DNA from: an uncultured Alphaproteobacteria bacterium
GTDB taxonomy: Bacteria > Pseudomonadota > Alphaproteobacteria > RF32 > CAG-239
Assembly: GCA_947588655.1 (NCBI GenBank)
Contig: CANPYS010000002.1
Span: 11,912 to 75,911 of the forward strand
Direction: 5' to 3'
DNA: 64,000 nucleotides
Below, in pieces: positions 1 through 63,787 of this stretch. Below the pieces are notes generated by a model. It was given only the letters and a program-made list of their open reading frames with translations. It did not search any database and had not been told where the DNA came from. The translations under genes and the position numbers were made by a program. The first letter of the stretch is position 1; each line of letters starts with the position of its first letter.

Positions 1-498
1 AGGCGAAATCAAATCAATCACGCGGGTTGTATAGTCTTTTTCGCCGCAGATAATATCAAAATTAAGTTTTTCAGTCGGATACAAAGGCGTTAAGTTATCA
101 AAATTAACACGCAACTTAGATTTTTCAGGATCTTCATAATTAATTCTGTTAATTTTCATTAAAGCAAAATAACGTTCATTATCTTTTGGCGCTCTAATTT
201 CACCCTCAACCGTATCGCCTGTGCGCAAAGAATATTTTTTAACTTGACCTGGCGAAACATAAATATCATCAGGGCTTGCTAAATAATTAGACTTTGCCGA
301 GCGTAAAAACCCAAAGCCGTCTTGCATAACTTCAATAACGCCGTCGCCCTCAATAACATTATTATCGGAAGCAACTTTTTTCATAATGGCAAAAATAAGA
401 TCTTGAACACGCATAGAAGACGCATTATCAACACCCAAATCTTCAGCCCAATTCAACAATTCTTTAGGAGATTTATCCTTTAATTCTTTTATATGCAT
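1..498 (-). CDS. rho: Transcription termination factor Rho, N-terminal part (ORF runs off the 5' window edge)
   Basis: Reverse-strand translation from the ATG at 498-496 reads [15 protein letters not shown]...[46 protein letters not shown]. This matches the Rho N-terminal RNA-binding domain almost position for position (E. coli: ...[43 protein letters not shown]). Confidence 0.93.
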   Translation of the reverse strand, partial: [166 protein letters not shown]

Positions 499-938
499 GG
501 AAACCTTTTATTTGATAAATTAATATAAATTACGAATGTAATGAGCGCTTTATAATACCATTTAATTTAAAAGTCAACACTTTTTATACACCGTTCTTTT
601 TCCTTCTATTTAAATTTAAAATTTTATGTAGTTATTGTATATGATTGTTTATATTGTGGATGCAATTTTTTTAACAGATTAATCAACATTTTCCCCTCTT
701 GTGAATAAAAGATGTATAAATTTAAAATCACAATGAAGATTCAATAGGTTTTTAAAAATTAACAAGGTGTTAATTTTTTGAGTTTTTAACACATTTACCA
801 TTTGTTCATAAATTCTATGCACATGTTGATAAACTTGAGAAAATATTTTTATATTGTCTGAATAAAATGGTAAAATCGTTTCAGAAGGCTAATTTTTTAC
901 ACAGGCAATTTCTATTTTGTGGATAAAAGGCTGAAAGT

Positions 939-1508
939 ATGGAAATCATAGGCATTACAGGGCAAAGTGGCAGCGGCAAAACAACCATTGCTCAAATTTT
1001 GAGAAAAGAGGGCTTTTTGGTCTTAGACATAGATAAATGGTGCCGCCAAATGTATAATGATGCTTTGTTTTTAGAAAAAATAAGAACAAACTTTCCTTCA
1101 GCCTTTGAAAATGGTGTTTTTGATAAAAGAAAATTGAGGCATATTGTTTTTGAAAATCAAGAAAATTTAAAAGTTCTTGAAAGTTTAACGCACCCTTATT
1201 TAAAAGCCAAATTTTTAAAAACAAGGCGTTGCAATGCTTATAAAAATTATGATATTTTTGTAGATATTGCCTTGCTTTATGAAATGGGTTTAGATTGCTT
1301 TTGCACCAAAATCATAAGGGCTTGCGCGCCTTTTGAGGTTAAAATGCAAAGAGTTATAAAGCGTGATAATATTACAAAAGATGCATATAAGAAAATGCTT
1401 ATATATCAAAAAGATGATATAAAAGATGATATATTAGTAAATACGAATAAACCTTTAAACATTTTGAAAACGGATATTTTGAAATTAGTGGAAGAAATAA
1501 TATGTTAA
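939..1508 (+). CDS. coaE: Dephospho-CoA kinase
   Basis: N-terminal P-loop IGITGQSGSGKTT; 189 aa; sits immediately 5' of dnaQ as in many alphaproteobacteria. Confidence 0.88.
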   Translation: MEIIGITGQSGSGKTTIAQILRKEGFLVLDIDKWCRQMYNDALFLEKIRTNFPSAFENGVFDKRKLRHIVFENQENLKVLESLTHPYLKAKFLKTRRCNAYKNYDIFVDIALLYEMGLDCFCTKIIRACAPFEVKMQRVIKRDNITKDAYKKMLIYQKDDIKDDILVNTNKPLNILKTDILKLVEEIIC

Positions 1509-2266
1509 GAGAAATTGTTTTTGATACGGAAACAACAGGTTTTAACCCCGAAGAAGGCGACAAATTGGTTGAAATTGGCGCTGTGGAGCTCATTAACCAT
1601 ATTCCAACAGGTCGCACTTATCATCAATACATCAATCCGGATCGTGAAGTGCCGGAAGAAGTTGTTAAAGTTCATGGTTTAACGACCGAATTTTTAAAAG
1701 ATTATCCAAAAATTGGCGAAGTGGCGCAATCTTTTATAGATTTTGTTGGCGATGACGGCATTTTAGTCGCGCATAACGCCACTTTTGATATGAATTTTAT
1801 TAACTACGAATTTAAGCATAAAGGTTTTAGGACTTTTCCGGCTGATAGGGTGGTAGATACGCTTGAAATTGCTAAGTCCAAATTCCCTGGAGCGCGGAAC
1901 AATCTAGATGCTTTATGCCGTCGGTTTAATATTGATAATTCTTCGCGTACCAAGCACGGCGCTTTACTTGATGCCGAACTTTTGGCGGAGGTTTATTTAG
2001 AGCTTTTGGGCGGCGCTGAACCAAGTATGAATTTAGAAAATGCTAATTTAGAATATTCTAATTTAGAAAAAGCTAATTTAGAAAGAACTAATTTAGAAAG
2101 AACTAATTTAGAAAACGCTAATTTAGAGAATGCTAATTTAGAAAATGCTAATATACAAATCCAAAATTTTCACGAACCGCGCAGTTTTCCTTTAACTGCA
2201 GACGAGGAACAAGCACACGAAACTTTTTTAAAAGAAAAATTAACCGATGCCGTTTGGCTCAAATAA
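1502..2266 (+). CDS. dnaQ: DNA polymerase III epsilon subunit (3'-5' proofreading exonuclease) with a C-terminal pentapeptide-repeat insertion
   Basis: Exo I (VFDTETTGF), Exo II (HNATFDMNFI) and Exo III (HGALLDAELLAEVY) motifs. The C-terminal third reads NLENANLEYSNLEKANLERTNLERTNLENANLENANLENAN, encoded by 15-nt tandem units. Confidence 0.9.
   Translation: MLREIVFDTETTGFNPEEGDKLVEIGAVELINHIPTGRTYHQYINPDREVPEEVVKVHGLTTEFLKDYPKIGEVAQSFIDFVGDDGILVAHNATFDMNFINYEFKHKGFRTFPADRVVDTLEIAKSKFPGARNNLDALCRRFNIDNSSRTKHGALLDAELLAEVYLELLGGAEPSMNLENANLEYSNLEKANLERTNLERTNLENANLENANLENANIQIQNFHEPRSFPLTADEEQAHETFLKEKLTDAVWLK
2029..2163 (+). repeat. 15-bp tandem minisatellite (unit aatttagaaaatgct, about 8 units plus a degenerate unit), in frame within dnaQ; encodes pentapeptide NLENA repeats
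   Basis: Direct reading: aatttagaaaatgct / aatttagaatattct / aatttagaaaaagct / aatttagaaagaact x2 / aatttagaaaacgct / aatttagagaatgct / aatttagaaaatgct. Confidence 0.9.
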
Positions 2267-2926
2267 TTTTAAAATTATCTGATAAACTTCGGTCATATTT
2301 TTACAAAAATAAGGAATATCAAGCTTTTTAAGTTCTGAAAGATATTCTTTTTGATTTTTATGATAAAATCCAAGAAAAGCAATAGGCGTCGCGCCGGCGG
2401 CAAGGGCGGCTTTCAGACCAACAAGAGAATCTTCAACGACAACAGCGTTTTGAGGTTTTTCGCCCATTTTTTCACATGCAAGCAAAAACAAATCGGGTGC
2501 TGGTTTGCCATTTTGAACCATATCGGCGGTAAAAATATGCTTTAGAGGAAAATAATTTTCAATTTGAGCATTTTTTATTTTAAGCATTGTTTTTTCAAAA
2601 ATGCCGCCTGTGGCAATACATTGTTTAATAGGCAATTCAAAAATTTTTTCAATACCGGCGGCGCGTTCAAATTTTTGGTTTAACATAAGTTCAACATCTA
2701 AAGAATTTGCTTCATCCCAAAAGGAATCATCAACTTCAATATGATGTTCCAACAATTTTTGTGCTTTCGTTTTATCGCTCATTCCGCGCAAGGTGCGGTT
2801 AATTTTTTCCAAGTCCCAATCAATGCCAAGTTTAGATTTTAAAAGATACTGCCGATTTTTAAGCCAAAAATCTTCTGTATTGGCAATAACGCCGTCAAAA
2901 TCCCATATCAACAATTTTTTTTGCAT
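2240..2926 (-). CDS. HAD-superfamily hydrolase (beta-phosphoglucomutase-like phosphatase)
   Basis: Motif I LLIWDFDGVIANTE at the N-terminus; later motifs consistent with HAD (…VVVEDSLVGLKAALAAGA…); 228 aa. Confidence 0.7.
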   Translation of the reverse strand: MQKKLLIWDFDGVIANTEDFWLKNRQYLLKSKLGIDWDLEKINRTLRGMSDKTKAQKLLEHHIEVDDSFWDEANSLDVELMLNQKFERAAGIEKIFELPIKQCIATGGIFEKTMLKIKNAQIENYFPLKHIFTADMVQNGKPAPDLFLLACEKMGEKPQNAVVVEDSLVGLKAALAAGATPIAFLGFYHKNQKEYLSELKKLDIPYFCKNMTEVYQIILKLFEPNGIG

Positions 2927-3096
2927 TAAAACCTCGTCAAAAATTGACCTCGCCTAAAGCCCGTAGAAAGCATTTTTAATCAATTTATGATAAAGAGGTT
3001 AAAATTTCATAAAAAAGCGCTCCAAGGGCTTAAAATCGCAAATTTATAAATTTGTTAATAATTTTTGATTAAAATAAAACCCCTGATGAGGTAAAA

Positions 3097-4440
3097 ATGA
3101 CAAATCAAACCATATATGCATTATCCACGGCATGGGGCAAGTCTGGTGTGGCGATTATTCGCATATCGGGGCAAAATGCCAAAGAGGTTGTTCGTTTAAT
3201 GACCAATCTTGAAACAGTGTATTTAAAACCCCGATACGCTTATTTTACGCCCATTTTTCACAATGTTTCACGTGAAACATTAGATAAGGCGTTACTTTTA
3301 TACTTTCAAGCGCCACATTCTTTTACGGGCGAAGATTGTGTTGAAATCCAGTGCCACGGATCAAAAGCGGTTATCACGGCTATTTTAGACAGTTTATCCA
3401 CCCTGCCCGATTTCCGAATGGCAACCCAAGGCGAGTTTACCAAAAGAGCCTTTTTGAACAAAAAAATGGATTTAACAGAGGTTGACGCTCTATTAGATTT
3501 AATTAATTCAGAAACCGAAATACAACGGAAATCCGCGCTTTTGCAGATGGAAGGAAACTTAAAAGAGGTATATAAAAACTGGCGTAGTGAGTTGCTCAAA
3601 ATATATAGCTACTTAGAAGCTTATATAGATTTTCCTGATGAAGAAATACCAAATTCCATAAAAGAATCTATTTTGAACGGTGTATTTAAATTAATTAAAG
3701 AAATAGATGAACATTTTAAAACCGCACATTATAGTGAACGATTACGCGATGGTTTTAGGGTTGTTATTGCTGGACCAACCAACGCCGGCAAATCTAGCCT
3801 TTTGAACTTAATTGCCCAAAGGCAGGCGGCAATCGTATCTGACATTGCAGGCACAACGCGTGACGCTTTAGACATTTATTTAGATGTGGGCGGTTATCCA
3901 GTTATTATAACCGATACGGCGGGTTTAAGGGAGTCTTCGGATAAGATAGAGCAACAAGGCATTGAAATTACAAAAGAAAAAATCAAAGACGCCGACTATA
4001 TTTTAGCCCTTTTTGATGCCTCCAAAGATACGCCGGCGATTTTTAAAAATCTCAAAAAAGAATCTAAAAACAATATATTATATATTGCTAATAAATCCGA
4101 TACTTTAACATTTGAACAGTGTTCAGTATTTGAAAAACAAGGCTGTTTGTTGCTTTCGGCTAAGACCGGAAAAGGGCTTGAAAATTTACTTAAAACACTC
4201 GCAAACCGCATAGAATCAGATTTTTCCGGCGCGGCTTCCCTGCCCTTAACGCGCGCACGTTATCATCAATATTTGCAAAACACGCTCAACGCCTTAAAAG
4301 ACTTTAGCTTTGATAAAGAAATTGAACTTTCGGCGGAAGATATTCGCTTGGCAGCGCGTGAACTTGGCAAAATCACAGGTCAGATTGAAGTAGAAGAAAT
4401 TTTAAATAATATCTTTTCGTCATTTTGTATTGGAAAATAA
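3097..4440 (+). CDS. mnmE: tRNA modification GTPase MnmE (TrmE)
   Basis: 447 aa. G1 motif GPTNAGKSSLLN, G3 DTAGLRE, NKSD G4, C-terminal CIGK tetrapeptide. Followed by mnmG and rsmG. Confidence 0.95.
   Translation: MTNQTIYALSTAWGKSGVAIIRISGQNAKEVVRLMTNLETVYLKPRYAYFTPIFHNVSRETLDKALLLYFQAPHSFTGEDCVEIQCHGSKAVITAILDSLSTLPDFRMATQGEFTKRAFLNKKMDLTEVDALLDLINSETEIQRKSALLQMEGNLKEVYKNWRSELLKIYSYLEAYIDFPDEEIPNSIKESILNGVFKLIKEIDEHFKTAHYSERLRDGFRVVIAGPTNAGKSSLLNLIAQRQAAIVSDIAGTTRDALDIYLDVGGYPVIITDTAGLRESSDKIEQQGIEITKEKIKDADYILALFDASKDTPAIFKNLKKESKNNILYIANKSDTLTFEQCSVFEKQGCLLLSAKTGKGLENLLKTLANRIESDFSGAASLPLTRARYHQYLQNTLNALKDFSFDKEIELSAEDIRLAARELGKITGQIEVEEILNNIFSSFCIGK
3262..3281. promoter_or_regulatory. 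parS: parS centromere-like site (perfect palindrome AATGTTTCACGTGAAACATT) inside mnmE
   Basis: Exact 16-bp core TGTTTCACGTGAAACA matches the ParB-binding consensus; copy 1 of 3 identical copies. Confidence 0.85.
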
Positions 4441-47380: not shown

Positions 47381-47770
47381 AAGAGGCGGCCGGACAGCTG
47401 CGCGGCAAAAAGTAAGATTTGACTGTGAGGAAAGTCCGGGCTTTATGGAAACAAGACACCGGATAACTTCCGGCCGGAGGAATCCGAGGGAAAGCGCCAC
47501 AGAAAATTACCGCCGAAAATTTTTTCGGTAAGGTTGAAAAGGCGAGGTAAAAGCTCACCGCTGGGGCAGAAATGTCACAGGCAAGGCAAGCCCTGTCTAA
47601 AGCAAGACCAAGTTAGGGTAAGGTTTATCCTTAGTGGAGCGTTTTCACTCCGGCCCAGGAGGTAGGTCGCAAGAGCGGTTTGGCAACAATCCGCCAAGAT
47701 GAATAGCTGTCGCGGATATCTTTGCTTGCAAAGCAATATCTGTCACAAAACCCGGCTTATAGGTCGCCTT
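47381..47770 (+). ncRNA. rnpB: RNase P RNA (bacterial type A)
   Basis: Universally conserved GAGGAAAGUCCGGGCU (P4 5' strand), …AAGGUUGAAAAGGCGAGGUAAAAGCUCACCG… (P10-12 region), 3' …ACAAAACCCGGCUUAUAGGUCGCCU pairing with the 5' AAGAGGCGGCC (P1). Confidence 0.85.
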
Positions 47771-47791
47771 AAATTTTGAATTGGAGGATAG

Positions 47792-57567: not shown

Positions 57568-58044
57568 TTAAGCTTGCATAGGTTCTTTTTTGCCTTTTTT
57601 CTTGACGTTAATTTTTTTATAATTTTCTTGTTCCAGATGCATTTTTGGAATTTTGACAGTTAGCACGCCATCGTCGTATTGAGCGTCAGCGGCGGCATAG
57701 TCCAAATTCCTTGGCAGAGGAATACTGCGTTTAAACATACCGTAAGAAATTTCTGAAAAATAATTATTTTTAGAAGTTTATTCCGTTAAGTGCCGTTTTT
57801 CGCCTGAAATGGTCAAATAGCCTTCATCTGAGATTTTAAGGTCAATATCATCTTCCTTAATCCCTGGCATTTCAGCCGCGACCAAAACAGAGTCTTTATG
57901 ATCCGTAACGTCAATTTTAGGCTCTAAATCGCCCATATCTTCGCCACTAAAGTCAAAAAAGTAGTTCCAAAGGCTTTTCAAGTCGTGCGAGCGTGTGCTT
58001 AAAGCCTGATTTTCTTTGGCAGAATTTGAAACAAGGTTTTTCAT
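57568..58044 (-). pseudogene. Hsp20/α-crystallin small heat-shock protein gene interrupted by an in-frame TAA
   Basis: ATG 58044 (AAGGAG RBS) …EPKIDVTDHKDSVLVAAEMPGIKEDDIDLKISDEGYLTISGEKRHLTE-TAA-TSKNNYFSEISYGMFKRSIPLPRNLDYAAADAQYDDGVLTVKIPK… The same frame continues for 69 codons after the stop at 57780-57778 and completes a normal ~155-aa Hsp20. Confidence 0.6.
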
Positions 58045-58066
58045 CTTCTGTACTCCTTGGAAAAAA

Positions 58067-58252
58067 TTAGTATTCAAAATCTTCTTCTTCAATTTCAACG
58101 ACTTCATCATCAGCCGGATGAGCTTTACAGCCACAGCCGCAACCGCCACTTTTTTCAGCGCCTTGTTTTTTATTTTCGCCTTGGAAAGTGTTGCCGCTTT
58201 CATTATTGTTTTCCGAAGAGTTATTTTCGTTATCCATTGCGTATTTATCCAT
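58067..58252 (-). CDS. Small acidic Asn/Glu-rich protein with a GGCGCGC motif (61 aa)
   Basis: AGGAGG RBS 6 nt upstream of the ATG; MDKYAMDNENNSSENNNESGNTFQGENKKQGAEKSGGCGCGCKAHPADDEVVEIEEEDFEY; located just upstream of the Hsp20 gene. Confidence 0.45.
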   Translation of the reverse strand: MDKYAMDNENNSSENNNESGNTFQGENKKQGAEKSGGCGCGCKAHPADDEVVEIEEEDFEY

Positions 58253-58345
58253 GGTATCCTCCTAAATGTTAAAGTTAAAAAAAGTTTTAGTTGTTCCACG
58301 CACAAAGATATGAGTTCTTTGCCTAATTTTTAGCTAGACAATCGG

Positions 58346-59290: not shown

Positions 59291-59384
59291 AATCCGAAAG
59301 GCTAAAACGTCTTGACAAAATTTGAAAAAAGAGTAACATGCGCTTACAAAAAAATTATGATGTTTAACTATTAATTCTTATATT

Positions 59385-60494
59385 ATGGGAACAAAGTTCT
59401 TTTATGCAGGATCTTTTGATCCTTTTACTTGCGGACATTTAAGTATTGTGTTGCAAGCGCTAAATGTTTTTGACAAAGGAATTATTGCCATTGGCAAAAA
59501 TGATAGCAAAGAGCCTTGGTATAGCCTCAACCTACGCAAACAGATGATTGCTGAGAGCCTAAAGTATTATGATCGGGTAACGGGCAGAAACTTTTCCTCA
59601 AGGGTTGAGATTACTTCTTACGAGGGCTTAACAGTTGATGCGGCTTATCGGCTTGGGGCAACGCACATGGTGCGCGGCTACCGCAACCGTGATGAAAAGC
59701 GAAAAGAAAACCTTTTGTCTGATGTCAATAACAAGCTGTTATCAATCCGTGGAATAAGCATCATTCAGGAGAGCTTTTCGGCGGGGCGAGGGCTAGAAGG
59801 TGTTTCTTCTTCATTAACCAAGAGCCTTTTGGAGCAAGCGGAGTTTATCGCCGCGGCGGCGTATGTGTTGCCACCGGTGTTTAACTTATGCGTTGGCGGC
59901 TTGTCAAACTTTAACCAACAAATGGTTGAGGCGGGCTTTTCTAACAATGTTCAATGGCTAGCAACAATGTCAAAGAGGGAATATCACAACATCGGGCATG
60001 TCGCCTATATGCTGAATTGGCTCAAGATATATCGGAGTCTTTACGGCAAAGAGGAAGATACGCAAAGCCTGTTAAGAGCGATATTCTACCACGACTATGT
60101 TAAGGACGATATTCAAAAATCGTTTGAGGAGTCGGGTTTGCCGGAAGAAAAGTTCGGGTTGTTTGAGGCAACGGATCACTTAAACCTCAAGCGCGAGCTT
60201 AAAGGCGATGAAAGGCTAATACATGACTTTGATTTGGCAATTCTTGCCAATGATGAGCTTTATTACCACTATAAGTGTTGCGTACGTCTTGAATATGCCG
60301 ATGTGCCTTTATCTGCGTATATTGAAGGGCGGCTTGAGGTTTTGCGAAAGCTTTACCGTAACTTCAGGTTTTATGTGTTAAACCCTGTGCTTGAAAGAAA
60401 AGCCAAAGAAAACATCTCGCGTGAGATAGCTTTTTGGGAAAAAGTCAAAAAGCATGGGCTACCGACACATTATGCTGGACTTGAAAATTGCTAA
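59385..60494 (+). CDS. Fusion protein: phosphopantetheine adenylyltransferase-like nucleotidyltransferase (N) plus HD-motif domain (C)
   Basis: N-terminal 130 aa colinear with CoaD (YAGSFDPFTCGHLSIV…IAIGKNDSKEPWYSL…MVRGYRNRDEKRKENLLS). The C-terminal ~200 aa carries H…H(x32)HD…D (…EYHNIGHVAYM…AIFYHDYVKD…DFDLAIL). Confidence 0.6.
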   Translation: MGTKFFYAGSFDPFTCGHLSIVLQALNVFDKGIIAIGKNDSKEPWYSLNLRKQMIAESLKYYDRVTGRNFSSRVEITSYEGLTVDAAYRLGATHMVRGYRNRDEKRKENLLSDVNNKLLSIRGISIIQESFSAGRGLEGVSSSLTKSLLEQAEFIAAAAYVLPPVFNLCVGGLSNFNQQMVEAGFSNNVQWLATMSKREYHNIGHVAYMLNWLKIYRSLYGKEEDTQSLLRAIFYHDYVKDDIQKSFEESGLPEEKFGLFEATDHLNLKRELKGDERLIHDFDLAILANDELYYHYKCCVRLEYADVPLSAYIEGRLEVLRKLYRNFRFYVLNPVLERKAKENISREIAFWEKVKKHGLPTHYAGLENC

Positions 60495-60498
60495 CAAA

Positions 60499-60531
60499 AA
60501 CACCGTTCTTTTTTAAGAACGGTGTTTTTTT
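60499..60531 (+). terminator. Intrinsic terminator
   Basis: aaaaacaccgttctt-tttt-aagaacggtgttttttt. Confidence 0.8.
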
Positions 60532-60608
60532 GCTTTTTAAGGCAAAATCAGCGCAGTGTACATAAAGGTGAGGACTCTTTTAAGGATTAAAATTGCTCTA
60601 AATACCAG

Positions 60609-60978: not shown

Positions 60979-61212
60979 ATGCAACAAAAACATACCCCGA
61001 TTACATGGGTCGTTGGTTCGGATTTAAACGCGCTTCTAAAAGAAGATGAAATTTTGGTTTTAGAATTACAAAATCAAAAAATAACTGGTCATGCTCAAAT
61101 TATGCGGCGTGATCAAATTCATACGGATGATGAAAAACTGCGTGCCGAGCTTGAAAAAAAGCCTGCTTATGTTTTAATAAACAAAGAGGCAATGCACTTG
61201 TGCTTTAAATAG
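60979..61212 (+). CDS. Hypothetical small protein (77 aa)
   Basis: AGGAAAAGGA RBS; MQQKHTPITWVVGSDLNALLKEDEILVLELQNQ…. Confidence 0.35.
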   Translation: MQQKHTPITWVVGSDLNALLKEDEILVLELQNQKITGHAQIMRRDQIHTDDEKLRAELEKKPAYVLINKEAMHLCFK

Positions 61213-61216
61213 GTTG

Positions 61217-61936
61217 TTATTGCAGCGGCGGAATATTAAGCTGAGCAATATTGCCGGGCTTGATTTTAACGCTGGAATAACGCATATTTCCTGTTTCAAT
61301 CACAAAGCGCTGACGACCGGTTAATTGTGACGCTAAGTCATAAAAATCGCGTCCGTTGAGGTCTTGCCGTTGCGGATTCATGACGTATAAAACACAGCCT
61401 TGTGTTTTTTCCGCCACACCGCAGCGACTCCGACCTTGCGGCACTTCCGGATTAATAACAACGCCTTGCAAGCCGTTGCGTACGACTTGTTCCGAGGAAA
61501 ACATCAATTTGCCGAAAATAAGCCCTACAAAAAAGCATCCGAGCAAGAGCGCCACAAACTTTTTAGCGTCAAGCCGCGCCATAAACATATCAAACGATGT
61601 TTGATGTTCATAATACGATTCGTTGTCGTATTCATCAGGCTGTTGTGCATAATTTTCGTTATAAGAAGAAACAGGCGCGCGGTTAATTGCGGGTGGTTGT
61701 ATTCCAGCGCTTTGCCCCTGAGATTGAGCGTTTTGCGCCGTATTTACAACAGAAGCCCCCGAAACAGGCTGATTATAATCTGTAATTGGACCCTGATGCG
61801 TTTTCGGGCGCTTGATTTTTCTTAATCTCGGCATATTAGAATTATCAGAATCTTGAAACCAGCCGCCTTGTTCAGCGGTTTGTGTGTTATTTGTTCCCGA
61901 TTCGTTTTTATTTTCAAAATCAGCCATTTGTTTCAC
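61217..61936 (-). CDS. Bitopic membrane protein (N/Q-rich cytoplasmic N-terminus, one TM, ~90-aa periplasmic domain) downstream of a secretin-like gene
   Basis: TM FVALLLGCFFVGLIFGKLMF; starts 2 nt after the stop of the upstream lipoprotein gene. Confidence 0.5.
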   Translation of the reverse strand: MKQMADFENKNESGTNNTQTAEQGGWFQDSDNSNMPRLRKIKRPKTHQGPITDYNQPVSGASVVNTAQNAQSQGQSAGIQPPAINRAPVSSYNENYAQQPDEYDNESYYEHQTSFDMFMARLDAKKFVALLLGCFFVGLIFGKLMFSSEQVVRNGLQGVVINPEVPQGRSRCGVAEKTQGCVLYVMNPQRQDLNGRDFYDLASQLTGRQRFVIETGNMRYSSVKIKPGNIAQLNIPPLQ

Positions 61937-61938
61937 CT

Positions 61939-63201
61939 TTAAAGATTATTTTTAATTTCTTCCGTTGTTTCCATGGTGCGGATAATGCGGGGCACCATAA
62001 AAATGACCGTTTCCGAACGAGTCTCTTCATTGCCGAAAAGCTCGTTAGGCAACCCGATAATCATAAAGTTTTCGCCAAGTTTGTTGCGCACCTTAAAGCG
62101 CGTGACTTGTCCTTGCGTTGTTTCAAGCGTAATTTCAGAGCTTATGTGATTATCATCAGATACATCCGCTTTGGCAAGAATAGACATATCCGATTCGGCG
62201 CAACGCATTTTGCCGCATTTGCCGACATCAAAGCGCGAAAGCCACAAGTTGGGCGAAACAAACTTGCCCTCTGCCACGGGCACAATCCGCGCATTGCGTC
62301 CTAAAAAGCGGCTCAAGTTTTCAAGACTAAGCTCGTTGGTGGTGGTTAAAACCCTGCCAATAACGCCTGTTTGGGCGGTTGTGATTGTGCCAAAATCAAA
62401 CGTATCAAGCAAATTTTTCCACTCAATGTCGCAACCATCGTTCGGAATAATTTTGATAATACCCACGTCATAAGCCACCAACGATGGATTCGTTTTAAAA
62501 TATTCAATCAGATTGACAATGTTGTTCTGAACTTCAACATCGGCATTAAACATAATGGAATAATCCGCCCAGTTGGTTGTCATATCCGTAATGCCCGCGC
62601 CCCGCAACACATCAAGAATAGCAAGCATAATAGGGCGCGAATGTGGCGTAAAGAGCAACAAATCAACCCGACGCGAAAGTGTCATGACTTTGTTTTCGGC
62701 ATTGTAAGTATAAAAAATTTCAGCGGCTTGGGTAATCATATCCACAACATCGGCAAATTCGCCACGGAGATTATCGCCTGAAATGCTTTCGTAAGGCGCG
62801 TCTTTGGCAACAAGCTTAATGCCTGCCTCGTCGGTTAATTGCAAAAGGGCTTGCTCGGCGGGCTGTGTTTCAAACGTAAAGCCCGTAACCTCAAAGCGGG
62901 GCAAGGGGTCATTGCGCGAGGCGCGAACAAGCTTAAAAGAATTGTTAAAAGGGAGCGTTAAAAGCATTTGTTGCGTTTCCCAATTCACATTGCAACGAAG
63001 TGGCGTTTCCAAATCAAGCGCGTTGGCGCCATCAGGGGTGCGAATAGCGCTCTCGCCCATGGGATAAACGGCGTCTGCGTCATATTGCGGGGGCAAAACA
63101 ACTTCAGGCTCTTTCTTAAAATATTGACAGCCGAATAATAAAATTAAACTGCAAAAAAACAAAATCTGTTGGACAGCATGTTTCATTTTAATTTTCTCCA
63201 C
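61939..63201 (-). CDS. Outer-membrane lipoprotein with a secretin-like C-terminal domain (second, smaller secretin-family protein)
   Basis: Probable start 63186 (MKHAVQQILFFCSLILLFGCQ: lipobox LLFGC), coupled TAAAATG to the upstream gene. N0/N1-like segments (…ALLQLTDEAGIKLVAKD…); C-terminal …KVRNKLGENFMIIGLPNELFGNEETRSETVIFMVPRIIR resembling the secretin C-terminus. Confidence 0.5.
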   Translation of the reverse strand: MEKIKMKHAVQQILFFCSLILLFGCQYFKKEPEVVLPPQYDADAVYPMGESAIRTPDGANALDLETPLRCNVNWETQQMLLTLPFNNSFKLVRASRNDPLPRFEVTGFTFETQPAEQALLQLTDEAGIKLVAKDAPYESISGDNLRGEFADVVDMITQAAEIFYTYNAENKVMTLSRRVDLLLFTPHSRPIMLAILDVLRGAGITDMTTNWADYSIMFNADVEVQNNIVNLIEYFKTNPSLVAYDVGIIKIIPNDGCDIEWKNLLDTFDFGTITTAQTGVIGRVLTTTNELSLENLSRFLGRNARIVPVAEGKFVSPNLWLSRFDVGKCGKMRCAESDMSILAKADVSDDNHISSEITLETTQGQVTRFKVRNKLGENFMIIGLPNELFGNEETRSETVIFMVPRIIRTMETTEEIKNNL

Positions 63202-63787
63202 TTTCGGTCTTTAGGGCATCAGGTTTAATTTCCGGTGCTTTAGGCTCGCTTGGTGTAAAAGGTTCTTCAGGGGCAATTTGTGGCGCATTTTCAGAAGATT
63301 CTTCTGCTTCTTGATTTTCTTTTGCCTGTTGTTCGTTTAAAAGTTTGTTGACAATGTCATCCATACTCATACCCGCGCCAACAGTCGGGTCAACTGACTT
63401 ATCAACCTCGCCCAAAGCCTCTTTCATTTTATTAAGCTCCTGTGGATCTTGCTTAAGCATTTCAGGCGAAGAATTGTTGCGCAACTCTTCCTGATAAAGA
63501 TTAAGGTTGTCTTCAAGTGCTTTAATGCCGCCGGCAATCTTTTTTTCAACATATGGATGCAAAGCGGGTGTGCTTAAAATATGGTTGCCCGTATCGCAAA
63601 TTTCTTCCAACACATCTAAAATATAGCCATAAAACGGATATTCTTCCATAGCGATATTGCCCATGCGGACACATCTAGCGGCGATTCGCGAAATGGTGCG
63701 GTCGTAATAATCCCTTAAAACGAGGTAATTATCAACATACCAAAGTTCGTCTTTACGAACTGAAACAGGCTTATCATCAGCGCTCAT
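63188..63787 (-). CDS. Hypothetical cytoplasmic protein with an acidic disordered tail, first gene seen of the second secretin locus
   Basis: AGGAG RBS upstream of ATG 63787; 199 aa; no TM. Confidence 0.45.
   Translation of the reverse strand: MSADDKPVSVRKDELWYVDNYLVLRDYYDRTISRIAARCVRMGNIAMEEYPFYGYILDVLEEICDTGNHILSTPALHPYVEKKIAGGIKALEDNLNLYQEELRNNSSPEMLKQDPQELNKMKEALGEVDKSVDPTVGAGMSMDDIVNKLLNEQQAKENQEAEESSENAPQIAPEEPFTPSEPKAPEIKPDALKTESGEN

Follow-up and report, generated by a model that had tools for sequence, protein, structure and literature searches.

The 64-kb window analysed here (the whole stretch of 64,000 nucleotides from an uncultured alphaproteobacterium, contig CANPYS010000002.1) contains an open reading frame (ORF) at 59385..60494 whose product joins a CoaD-type phosphopantetheine adenylyltransferase (PPAT) to a C-terminal HD-superfamily phosphohydrolase domain. 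The same HD family is paired with PPAT, by fusion or by gene overlap, in a range of other lineages, and we consider it very probable that the two domains are correctly identified and functionally coupled. The protein is proposed to be a bifunctional enzyme of coenzyme A (CoA) metabolism in which the HD domain would be a turnover or proofreading partner of PPAT, a reading to which we assign a probability of about 0.4. An earlier note on this DNA had described the ORF as a CoaD-type nucleotidyltransferase joined to an HD-motif hydrolase, and this domain call proved right, as seen from the TIGR01510, PDB and fold matches of the first part and from the conserved motif and family membership of the second. 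The gene and its parts are the following (HMM, hidden Markov model; pLDDT, predicted local distance difference test):

59385..60494, + strand: coding sequence of the 369-aa bifunctional PPAT(CoaD)-HD protein (ORF list and sequence)
59385..59900, + strand: PPAT/CoaD domain, about residues 1-172 (Pfam, TIGR01510, PDB, Foldseek)
59901..59981, + strand: helical interdomain linker, about residues 173-199 (AlphaFold2 secondary structure, per-block pLDDT)
59982..60494, + strand: HD-superfamily phosphohydrolase domain, residues 200-369 (family profile, reverse HMM, AlphaFold2, motif)

The N-terminal domain matches Pfam CTP_transf_like (PF01467; E = 5e-9), a check that the earlier note had suggested, and the NCBIfam coaD model TIGR01510 over residues 6-153 (E = 8e-25, 87.6 bits). 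It is also matched by 34 PPAT sequences of the PDB (best E = 1.4e-11), and the 50 Foldseek matches listed are all PPAT structures, with target-normalised template modelling (TM) scores of 0.74-0.91 and root-mean-square deviations that reach below 2 Å. The similarity to PPAT had at first been put at about 130 aa; it extends over the whole domain of about 170-172 aa, which carries two short lineage-specific insertions. Weak cross-matches to the models of nicotinamide and nicotinic acid mononucleotide (NMN/NaMN) adenylyltransferase and of citrate lyase ligase were found as well.

In published PPAT structures, K42, R88, R91, N106 and S128-S130 (E. coli numbering) are the substrate and transition-state residues. 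All of these, together with H18 and E99, are kept in the window protein when it is aligned with CoaD of E. coli MG1655, and its own motif residues are FTCGH (H18 at 59436-59438), K42, R97-G-x-R100, N115 and S141-S142-S143. The FDPFTCGH motif with H18, aligned with T15-N-G-H18 of the E. coli enzyme, is invariant in 25 of 25 family members, and the active-site positions in general are invariant or nearly so within the CoaD-HD family. From sequence, fold and active site together we strongly infer that the N-terminal domain is a divergent and complete PPAT with all of its active-site residues, and that it is probably active.

No other ORF of the 64-kb window is PPAT-like, and coaBC was not found within it either. 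PPAT catalyses the penultimate step of CoA synthesis, and the step that follows is encoded 58 kb away from the PPAT-HD gene:

939..1508, + strand: coaE (dephospho-CoA kinase), 189 aa (Pfam CoaE, 104.4 bits, E = 7e-30)

An HMM made from the CoaE domains of fused relatives (see below) matches this coaE with E = 7e-22. Since the catalytic residues are kept and CoaE is both fused to some relatives and encoded separately in the window, the N-terminal domain looks like a PPAT of the CoA pathway and not like a signalling enzyme, as far as its sequence tells.

The C-terminal domain contains the conserved residues Y200-H201-N-x-x-H205, H236-D237, T263-x-H265, D281-x-D283, E303, R316 and N343, of which H201-x3-H205 is encoded at 59985-59999, H236-D237 at 60090-60095 and D281/D283 at 60225-60233. 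All of the H-x3-H…HD…D residues named in the earlier note are thus present, and they are conserved across 296 aligned family domains: H201, H205 and D281 are invariant (296/296), while H236 is missing from one domain and D237 from five. This conservation lies far beyond chance. Of the fused HD domains, 77 of 82 (94%) keep the core H-H-HD-D residues, as do 212 of 214 standalone ones, and the window protein shares a complete YHNxxH…HD…DxD motif with about 95% of the family members. More broadly, Y-H-N/T-x-x-H, H-D, T-x-H, D-x-D, E, R and N form the family-invariant set, all of it present here, and such conservation speaks for a domain that is kept by purifying selection and is catalytically active. 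In a minority of fused members core residues have been lost, leaving HH in P0014, ND in P0021 and HN in P0036, P0041 and P0042, while the HD domain of P0023 reads WHNLSY / YQH; in these lineages the domain may be non-catalytic, judging from the missing residues.

When the HD-domain profile was searched against 1.84 billion cluster representatives, 15,572 proteins were retrieved at E ≤ 1e-3 and 10,945 at E ≤ 1e-10, so that the family, counted as clusters at 50% identity, exceeds 15,000. Most of them stand alone, with a length of about 205 aa (195-220 aa), and are matched from end to end; an HMM made from standalone members only recovers the window ORF with E = 4.8e-26. By its sequence the C-terminal domain is therefore a clear member of a very large family of 'predicted metal-dependent HD superfamily phosphohydrolases', not an ad hoc extension of CoaD. 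The family bears this name in JGI, is called "HD domain-containing protein" in UniRef and is mis-annotated by NCBI as "N-methyl-D-aspartate receptor NMDAR2C subunit"; we take it to be COG4339 / InterPro IPR009218. Its named members come from Cyanobacteria, Chloroflexi, Patescibacteria, Verrucomicrobia, Desulfobacterales, Gamma- and Betaproteobacteria, Flavobacteriia, Actinobacteria and Calditrichia. Six further members (P0082, P0123, P0152, P0165, P0171 and P0183) carry N-terminal extensions of 60-150 aa in which no PPAT domain was detected; in a Pfam scan of the set that contains them, the only families with matches in more than one member were CTP_transf_like, Citrate_ly_lig and CoaE.

The AlphaFold2 model of the full-length protein, built on 25 homologues, has a pLDDT of 95.0 and a predicted TM score of 0.92; its least confident part is the linker (pLDDT 78 for the block of about residues 181-190), whose length varies across the CoaD-HD family. 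Modelled alone, the HD domain is all-helical (pLDDT 91.7), and its top 36 Foldseek matches are all HD proteins or phosphodiesterases (PDEs), including 2pjq, the small alarmone hydrolase RelH, 2qgs, PDE10, PDE4, PDE5 and YedJ. A sequence-profile search of the PDB with the HD domain gave marginal matches to the HD protein 3b57 (E = 0.013) and to PDE9A (E = 0.3), and the YHNxxH…HD segment of the family aligns with the class I phosphodiesterase metal site of the latter. A cyclohydrolase match from the PDB (E = 0.003) was discounted, as it covers part of the domain and includes none of the motif residues. No close solved structure was found for the family in either the PDB sequence-profile or the Foldseek search. 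The modelled domain is therefore suggested to have a divergent HD/PDE-like fold, and we assign it to the HD superfamily because of the conserved motif, the fold matches that are weak and yet exclusively to HD proteins and phosphodiesterases, and the family membership.

The association of this family with PPAT recurs widely. A word-indexed search returned 28 close homologues of the window protein, all of them CoaD-like proteins with an HD domain, and P0023, P0025, P0026 and P0059 have an additional N-terminal dephospho-CoA kinase (CoaE-CoaD-HD). Among 301 HD-family proteins we counted 79 with the architecture PPAT-HD, 6 with CoaE-PPAT-HD and one with HD-PPAT. Canonical CoaD domains, which score above the TIGR01510 cut-off (127-169 bits), are fused to HD in P0289, P0203, P0341 and P0347. 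The reverse order, with the HD domain preceding a PPAT of the archaeal/eukaryotic type, is found in three clusters (P0185, P0350 and P0358; NF001985 131-153 bits, cut-off 104); a different PPAT family is used in these proteins, and the fusion is therefore independent.

Unfused genes display the same pairing. For instance, at locus L085 of a metagenome-assembled genome (MAG) the 3' end of a canonical coaD (146 bits) and the start of the standalone HD gene that follows it share 32 nt, and in the metagenomic locus L095 (2796..4525) a CoaD-CoaE fusion is followed by an overlapping standalone HD gene, the domain order being opposite to that of the CoaE-CoaD-HD proteins. A metagenome scan with an alignment of standalone HD proteins gave 80 loci, 68 of them with at least 450 nt of upstream sequence, and in 15 of these 68 (22%) a canonical coaD is immediately upstream of the HD gene on the same strand (12 overlapping, 3 fused). 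All-against-all clustering of every neighbouring ORF identified coaD as the only recurrent neighbour of the HD genes in the metagenomic loci. The link does not stem from one over-sampled clade, because the 15 coaD-linked HD proteins are diverse (median identity 48%, 13 clusters at 60%) and interspersed with unlinked ones. In a neighbour-joining tree of 296 HD domains the fused forms are spread over one large clade (58 members, the window protein among them), two smaller clades with 10 and 4 members, the latter made up of canonical CoaD-HD, and several singletons; this approximate tree is consistent with several fusion events. Taken together, these distributions strongly suggest that the PPAT-HD pairing has been selected for in many lineages, in some of them alongside CoaE.

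How the two domains would work together can be outlined as follows. The PPAT domain would convert 4'-phosphopantetheine and ATP to dephospho-CoA and pyrophosphate, and the CoaE encoded on its own at 939..1508 would take over this dephospho-CoA. The HD domain would cleave a phosphoanhydride or phosphoester linkage in the product of the transferase to which it is fused, and would thereby act as a turnover or proofreading partner of PPAT. Candidates for its substrate are dephospho-CoA itself or faulty analogues that arise from nucleotides other than ATP, the latter seeming the more useful target; this particular substrate class is proposed by analogy and is more doubtful than the partnership as such. 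A role in product hydrolysis is favoured because of known precedents. In GlnD and in Rel/SpoT, a transferase or synthetase has an HD domain as its partner, which removes the product again. In the NAD pathway, the YqeK HD domain, fused to or clustered with NadD, cleaves mis-made cytidine and uridine analogues of nicotinic acid adenine dinucleotide, and also Ap4A and 8-oxo-GTP (PMC9426524).

Several observations weigh against this interpretation, or against parts of it. On the side of the domain calls, the TIGR01510 score of the N-terminal domain lies below the equivalog cut-off of 103.3 bits, and Pfam HD (PF01966) gives the C-terminal domain only 13.0-14.3 bits, below its gathering threshold of 22. 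The earlier note had made detection by an HD profile the touchstone of its assignment; this detection failed, and the HD call rests instead on the motif, the fold and the family. Standalone relatives reach 15-20 bits with the same Pfam profile, and no NCBIfam model matches the C-terminal domain at E ≤ 1 (full protein and 18 C-terminal domains scanned). The Foldseek matches of the HD domain are weak (E = 0.04-1, TM about 0.3-0.55), and we found no functional or biochemical study of any HD-family member in the literature. The genomic association is also patchy: an HD homologue lies within 10 kb of canonical coaD in none of 79 species-genome loci, and the linkage is therefore lineage-restricted and not universal. 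Moreover, most HD members are standalone, and of four whose context is available in named genomes one adjoins coaD while three have unrelated neighbours, so the role of the family may be broader than CoA. In biochemical terms, undoing what PPAT has made would seem a waste unless the hydrolase were regulated or restricted to wrong products, and a linear pathway of three steps would account at least equally well for the CoaE-CoaD-HD triple fusions.

Such a pathway could be provided by salvage, with the HD domain acting as an AcpH-like phosphodiesterase that frees 4'-phosphopantetheine from holo-acyl- or peptidyl-carrier proteins, after which PPAT and CoaE would rebuild CoA. The CoaE-CoaD-HD fusions and the CoaD-CoaE and HD genes of L095 do look like consecutive steps, AcpH is itself an enzyme of the HD superfamily, and the YHNxxH segment resembles the general-acid and metal-ligand motif of the class I phosphodiesterases that Foldseek returns (PDE4, PDE5 and PDE10). 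However, comparison of the family profile with E. coli AcpH indicates that the two are unrelated (hhalign probability 0.08%, E = 0.62), and acpP, acpS and carrier-protein genes do not recur beside the HD genes, where coaD is the only recurrent neighbour; we regard this salvage route as improbable. A phosphomonoesterase acting on a CoA-pathway intermediate seems unlikely as well, though a little less so. The HD domain would in this case be a CoA 3'-phosphatase, converting CoA to dephospho-CoA in pool homeostasis, or a damage-control phosphatase for 4'-phosphopantetheine or its oxidised forms. The nearest structural matches include small alarmone hydrolases (RelH, SAH), enzymes that split a ribose 3'-O-P ester, but with E ≥ 0.04 the matches are weak, and in the relatives with a fused CoaE domain a 3'-phosphatase would work directly against it. 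The strong and specific linkage to coaD applies equally to such an enzyme, and a damage-control domain joined to a CoA enzyme has a parallel in DUF89, which is fused to pantothenate kinase 4 (PANK4). As cited in PMC9426524, the DUF89 family paper offers a precedent for a fused damage-control metal phosphatase in CoA synthesis.

The two remaining alternatives question one domain each. The C-terminal domain could be non-catalytic here or unrelated to CoA, an appendage with a structural or regulatory role or else a general hydrolase of nucleotide housekeeping fused by chance. The few fused members without core residues (P0023 and the five listed with it above) and the many standalone members without conserved neighbours would agree with this idea, but the window protein keeps every motif residue, as do 94% of the fused members, and chance is a very unlikely source of independent fusions to two PPAT families, in both orders, and of overlapping coaD-HD pairs in diverse lineages; the possibility appears remote. 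Still harder to sustain is the proposal that the N-terminal domain is a re-purposed nucleotidyltransferase making some other nucleotide conjugate or signal (e.g. Ap4A-like), which the HD domain would then degrade. Its sub-threshold TIGR01510 score, its lineage-specific insertions and its weak cross-matches to other nucleotidyltransferase models could be taken that way. Against it, none of the PPAT substrate-binding and catalytic residues has been lost, CoaE is fused to some of the relatives, members of the same HD family are fused to or paired with canonical CoaD well above the cut-off in other lineages, and the best PDB and fold matches are all PPAT. The Ap4A or (p)ppGpp signalling raised in the earlier note found nothing specific in its support.

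PPAT, an essential enzyme, is a target of antibacterial drugs, and the CoA pathway with its five steps is regarded as complete. With the turnover or proofreading partner of PPAT as the preferred reading, the wider suggestion concerns the HD family as a whole and its more than 15,000 clusters in many bacterial phyla: it would represent a missing accessory enzyme of CoA metabolism, a PPAT-dedicated hydrolase that would proofread or turn over dephospho-CoA-type products or would free 4'-phosphopantetheine for salvage; we hold this to be somewhat short of an even chance. If true, the fusion protein would be a self-contained module for synthesis and quality control (or salvage), a very large 'unknown' family would gain a function and the textbook pathway an extra step. 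The link to PPAT, made by fusion or translational coupling in many independent lineages and with both the bacterial and the archaeal-type enzyme, suggests an unrecognised accessory CoA reaction, be it product proofreading, pool turnover or 4'-phosphopantetheine salvage. A single gene of this kind is not startling, but the family-wide linkage to coaD is the first testable clue that the HD family works in CoA metabolism and makes its function directly accessible to experiment: screening a single soluble protein of two domains for its substrates would be a cheap way in, and could show what a family of thousands, now mis-annotated as an 'NMDA receptor subunit', does.

The PPAT-HD gene appears to be monocistronic. 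Its ATG is the first start codon past the upstream stop, and the N-terminus (MGTKFFYAGSFDP…) coincides in the alignment with that of every homologue; immediately 5' of this start there is no visible Shine-Dalgarno-like sequence. Two putative expression signals frame the gene:

59312..59339, + strand: candidate sigma-70-like promoter, TTGACA-16 nt-TAACAT (consensus scan, 10/12 matches; pattern match alone)
60496..60539, + strand: intrinsic terminator, 15-bp stem, 4-nt loop and T-run (terminator scan, direct reading)

The candidate promoter ends 46 nt 5' of the start codon. The terminator lies directly 3' of the stop codon, its hairpin and T-run being placed at 60496-60529; the earlier note had ascribed a strong terminator of its own to the gene. 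On one side the gene is flanked by a divergent short-chain dehydrogenase gene on the opposite strand and on the other by ORFs without Pfam match, and this operon context looks uninformative, as it is likewise for the P0025 and P0289 genes. An identical copy of the protein (P0001) exists in public NCBI and ENA metagenome assemblies. Among the species genomes the sole full-length relative, with 33% identity, is in L002, an uncultured alphaproteobacterial MAG; the scan of these genomes used the PPAT motif as its pattern and was swamped by generic coaD matches. A tblastn search of the plasmid collection gave ordinary coaD genes only.

Just past the terminator, at 60979..63787, is a run of ORFs (77, 239, 420 and 199 aa) without Pfam match. 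On the public contig (L001 1627..11142) such ORFs lead into a helix-turn-helix regulator and a TrbL-type type IV secretion (conjugation) gene, and the region downstream of the PPAT-HD gene may thus be the edge of a conjugative or integrative element. At the other end of the window, coaE overlaps by 7 nt a gene for a 254-aa DnaQ/RNase T-type exonuclease with C-terminal pentapeptide repeats (the pair spans 939..2266 on the + strand; Pfam RNase_T E = 8e-41, Pentapeptide E = 2e-11). This exonuclease-pentapeptide combination is an unusual fusion, and the gene order coaE-dnaQ is typical of Alphaproteobacteria.

Other features of the window were noted as well. The only Rfam family at gathering threshold is the bacterial RNase P RNA of class A, which is full length (47382..47775, + strand; 268.8 bits). 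At 57568..58305 on the - strand, two consecutive ORFs of 56 aa and 175 aa read as a split small heat-shock (alpha-crystallin) protein (…DVTDHKDSVLVAAEMPGIKEDDIDLKISDEGYLTISGEKRH / …YDDGVLTVKIPK), which could be a frameshift or a pseudogene; the larger, 175-aa ORF has no Pfam match at E ≤ 0.001. The GC content is 0.34 in 1..4000, compared with 0.38-0.47 elsewhere in the window.

The protein can be compared with several known systems. The window protein shares with bacterial CoaD/PPAT the fold (target-normalised TM up to 0.91) and the T/HxGH, K42, RGxR, N106 and SSS motifs, and differs from it by the score below the TIGR01510 cut-off, the two insertions and the 200-aa C-terminal HD domain, whereas E. 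coli CoaD has 159 aa in all. With the standalone HD phosphohydrolases it shares homology over the full length of the domain and the same invariant residues (YHNxxH, HD, TxH, DxD, E, R and N); typical members consist of these ~205 aa alone, and here the domain is fused behind PPAT. The likeness to AcpH is one of superfamily, and AcpH is a tempting model for the function because the 4'-phosphopantetheine that it releases is the substrate of PPAT; homology to AcpH was rejected on the profile comparison given above. Fusion of PPAT to a nucleotide or phosphate hydrolase domain has already been catalogued in the archaeal 'bifunctional pantetheine-phosphate adenylyltransferase/NTP phosphatase' (NF002250), but this protein combines an archaeal-type PPAT with another hydrolase domain, and the window protein has no match to NF002250.

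The general architecture of a cofactor nucleotidyltransferase with an HD hydrolase is already known from NadD-YqeK, GlnD and the CCA-adding enzyme, and the CoA version with this HD family appears to be undescribed in the searchable literature. Membership of the C-terminal domain in YqeK was rejected, as neither the full protein nor any of the 18 C-terminal domains matched an NCBIfam YqeK model at E ≤ 1. The NadD/YqeK parallel drawn in the earlier note accordingly does not extend to the family of the domain, while it remains a reasonable functional precedent (PMC9426524). In both systems a cofactor adenylyltransferase of the same nucleotidyltransferase superfamily is accompanied by an HD hydrolase, fused or operon-adjacent depending on the lineage, and the pathway they serve is that of NAD in NadD-YqeK and that of CoA in the protein described here.

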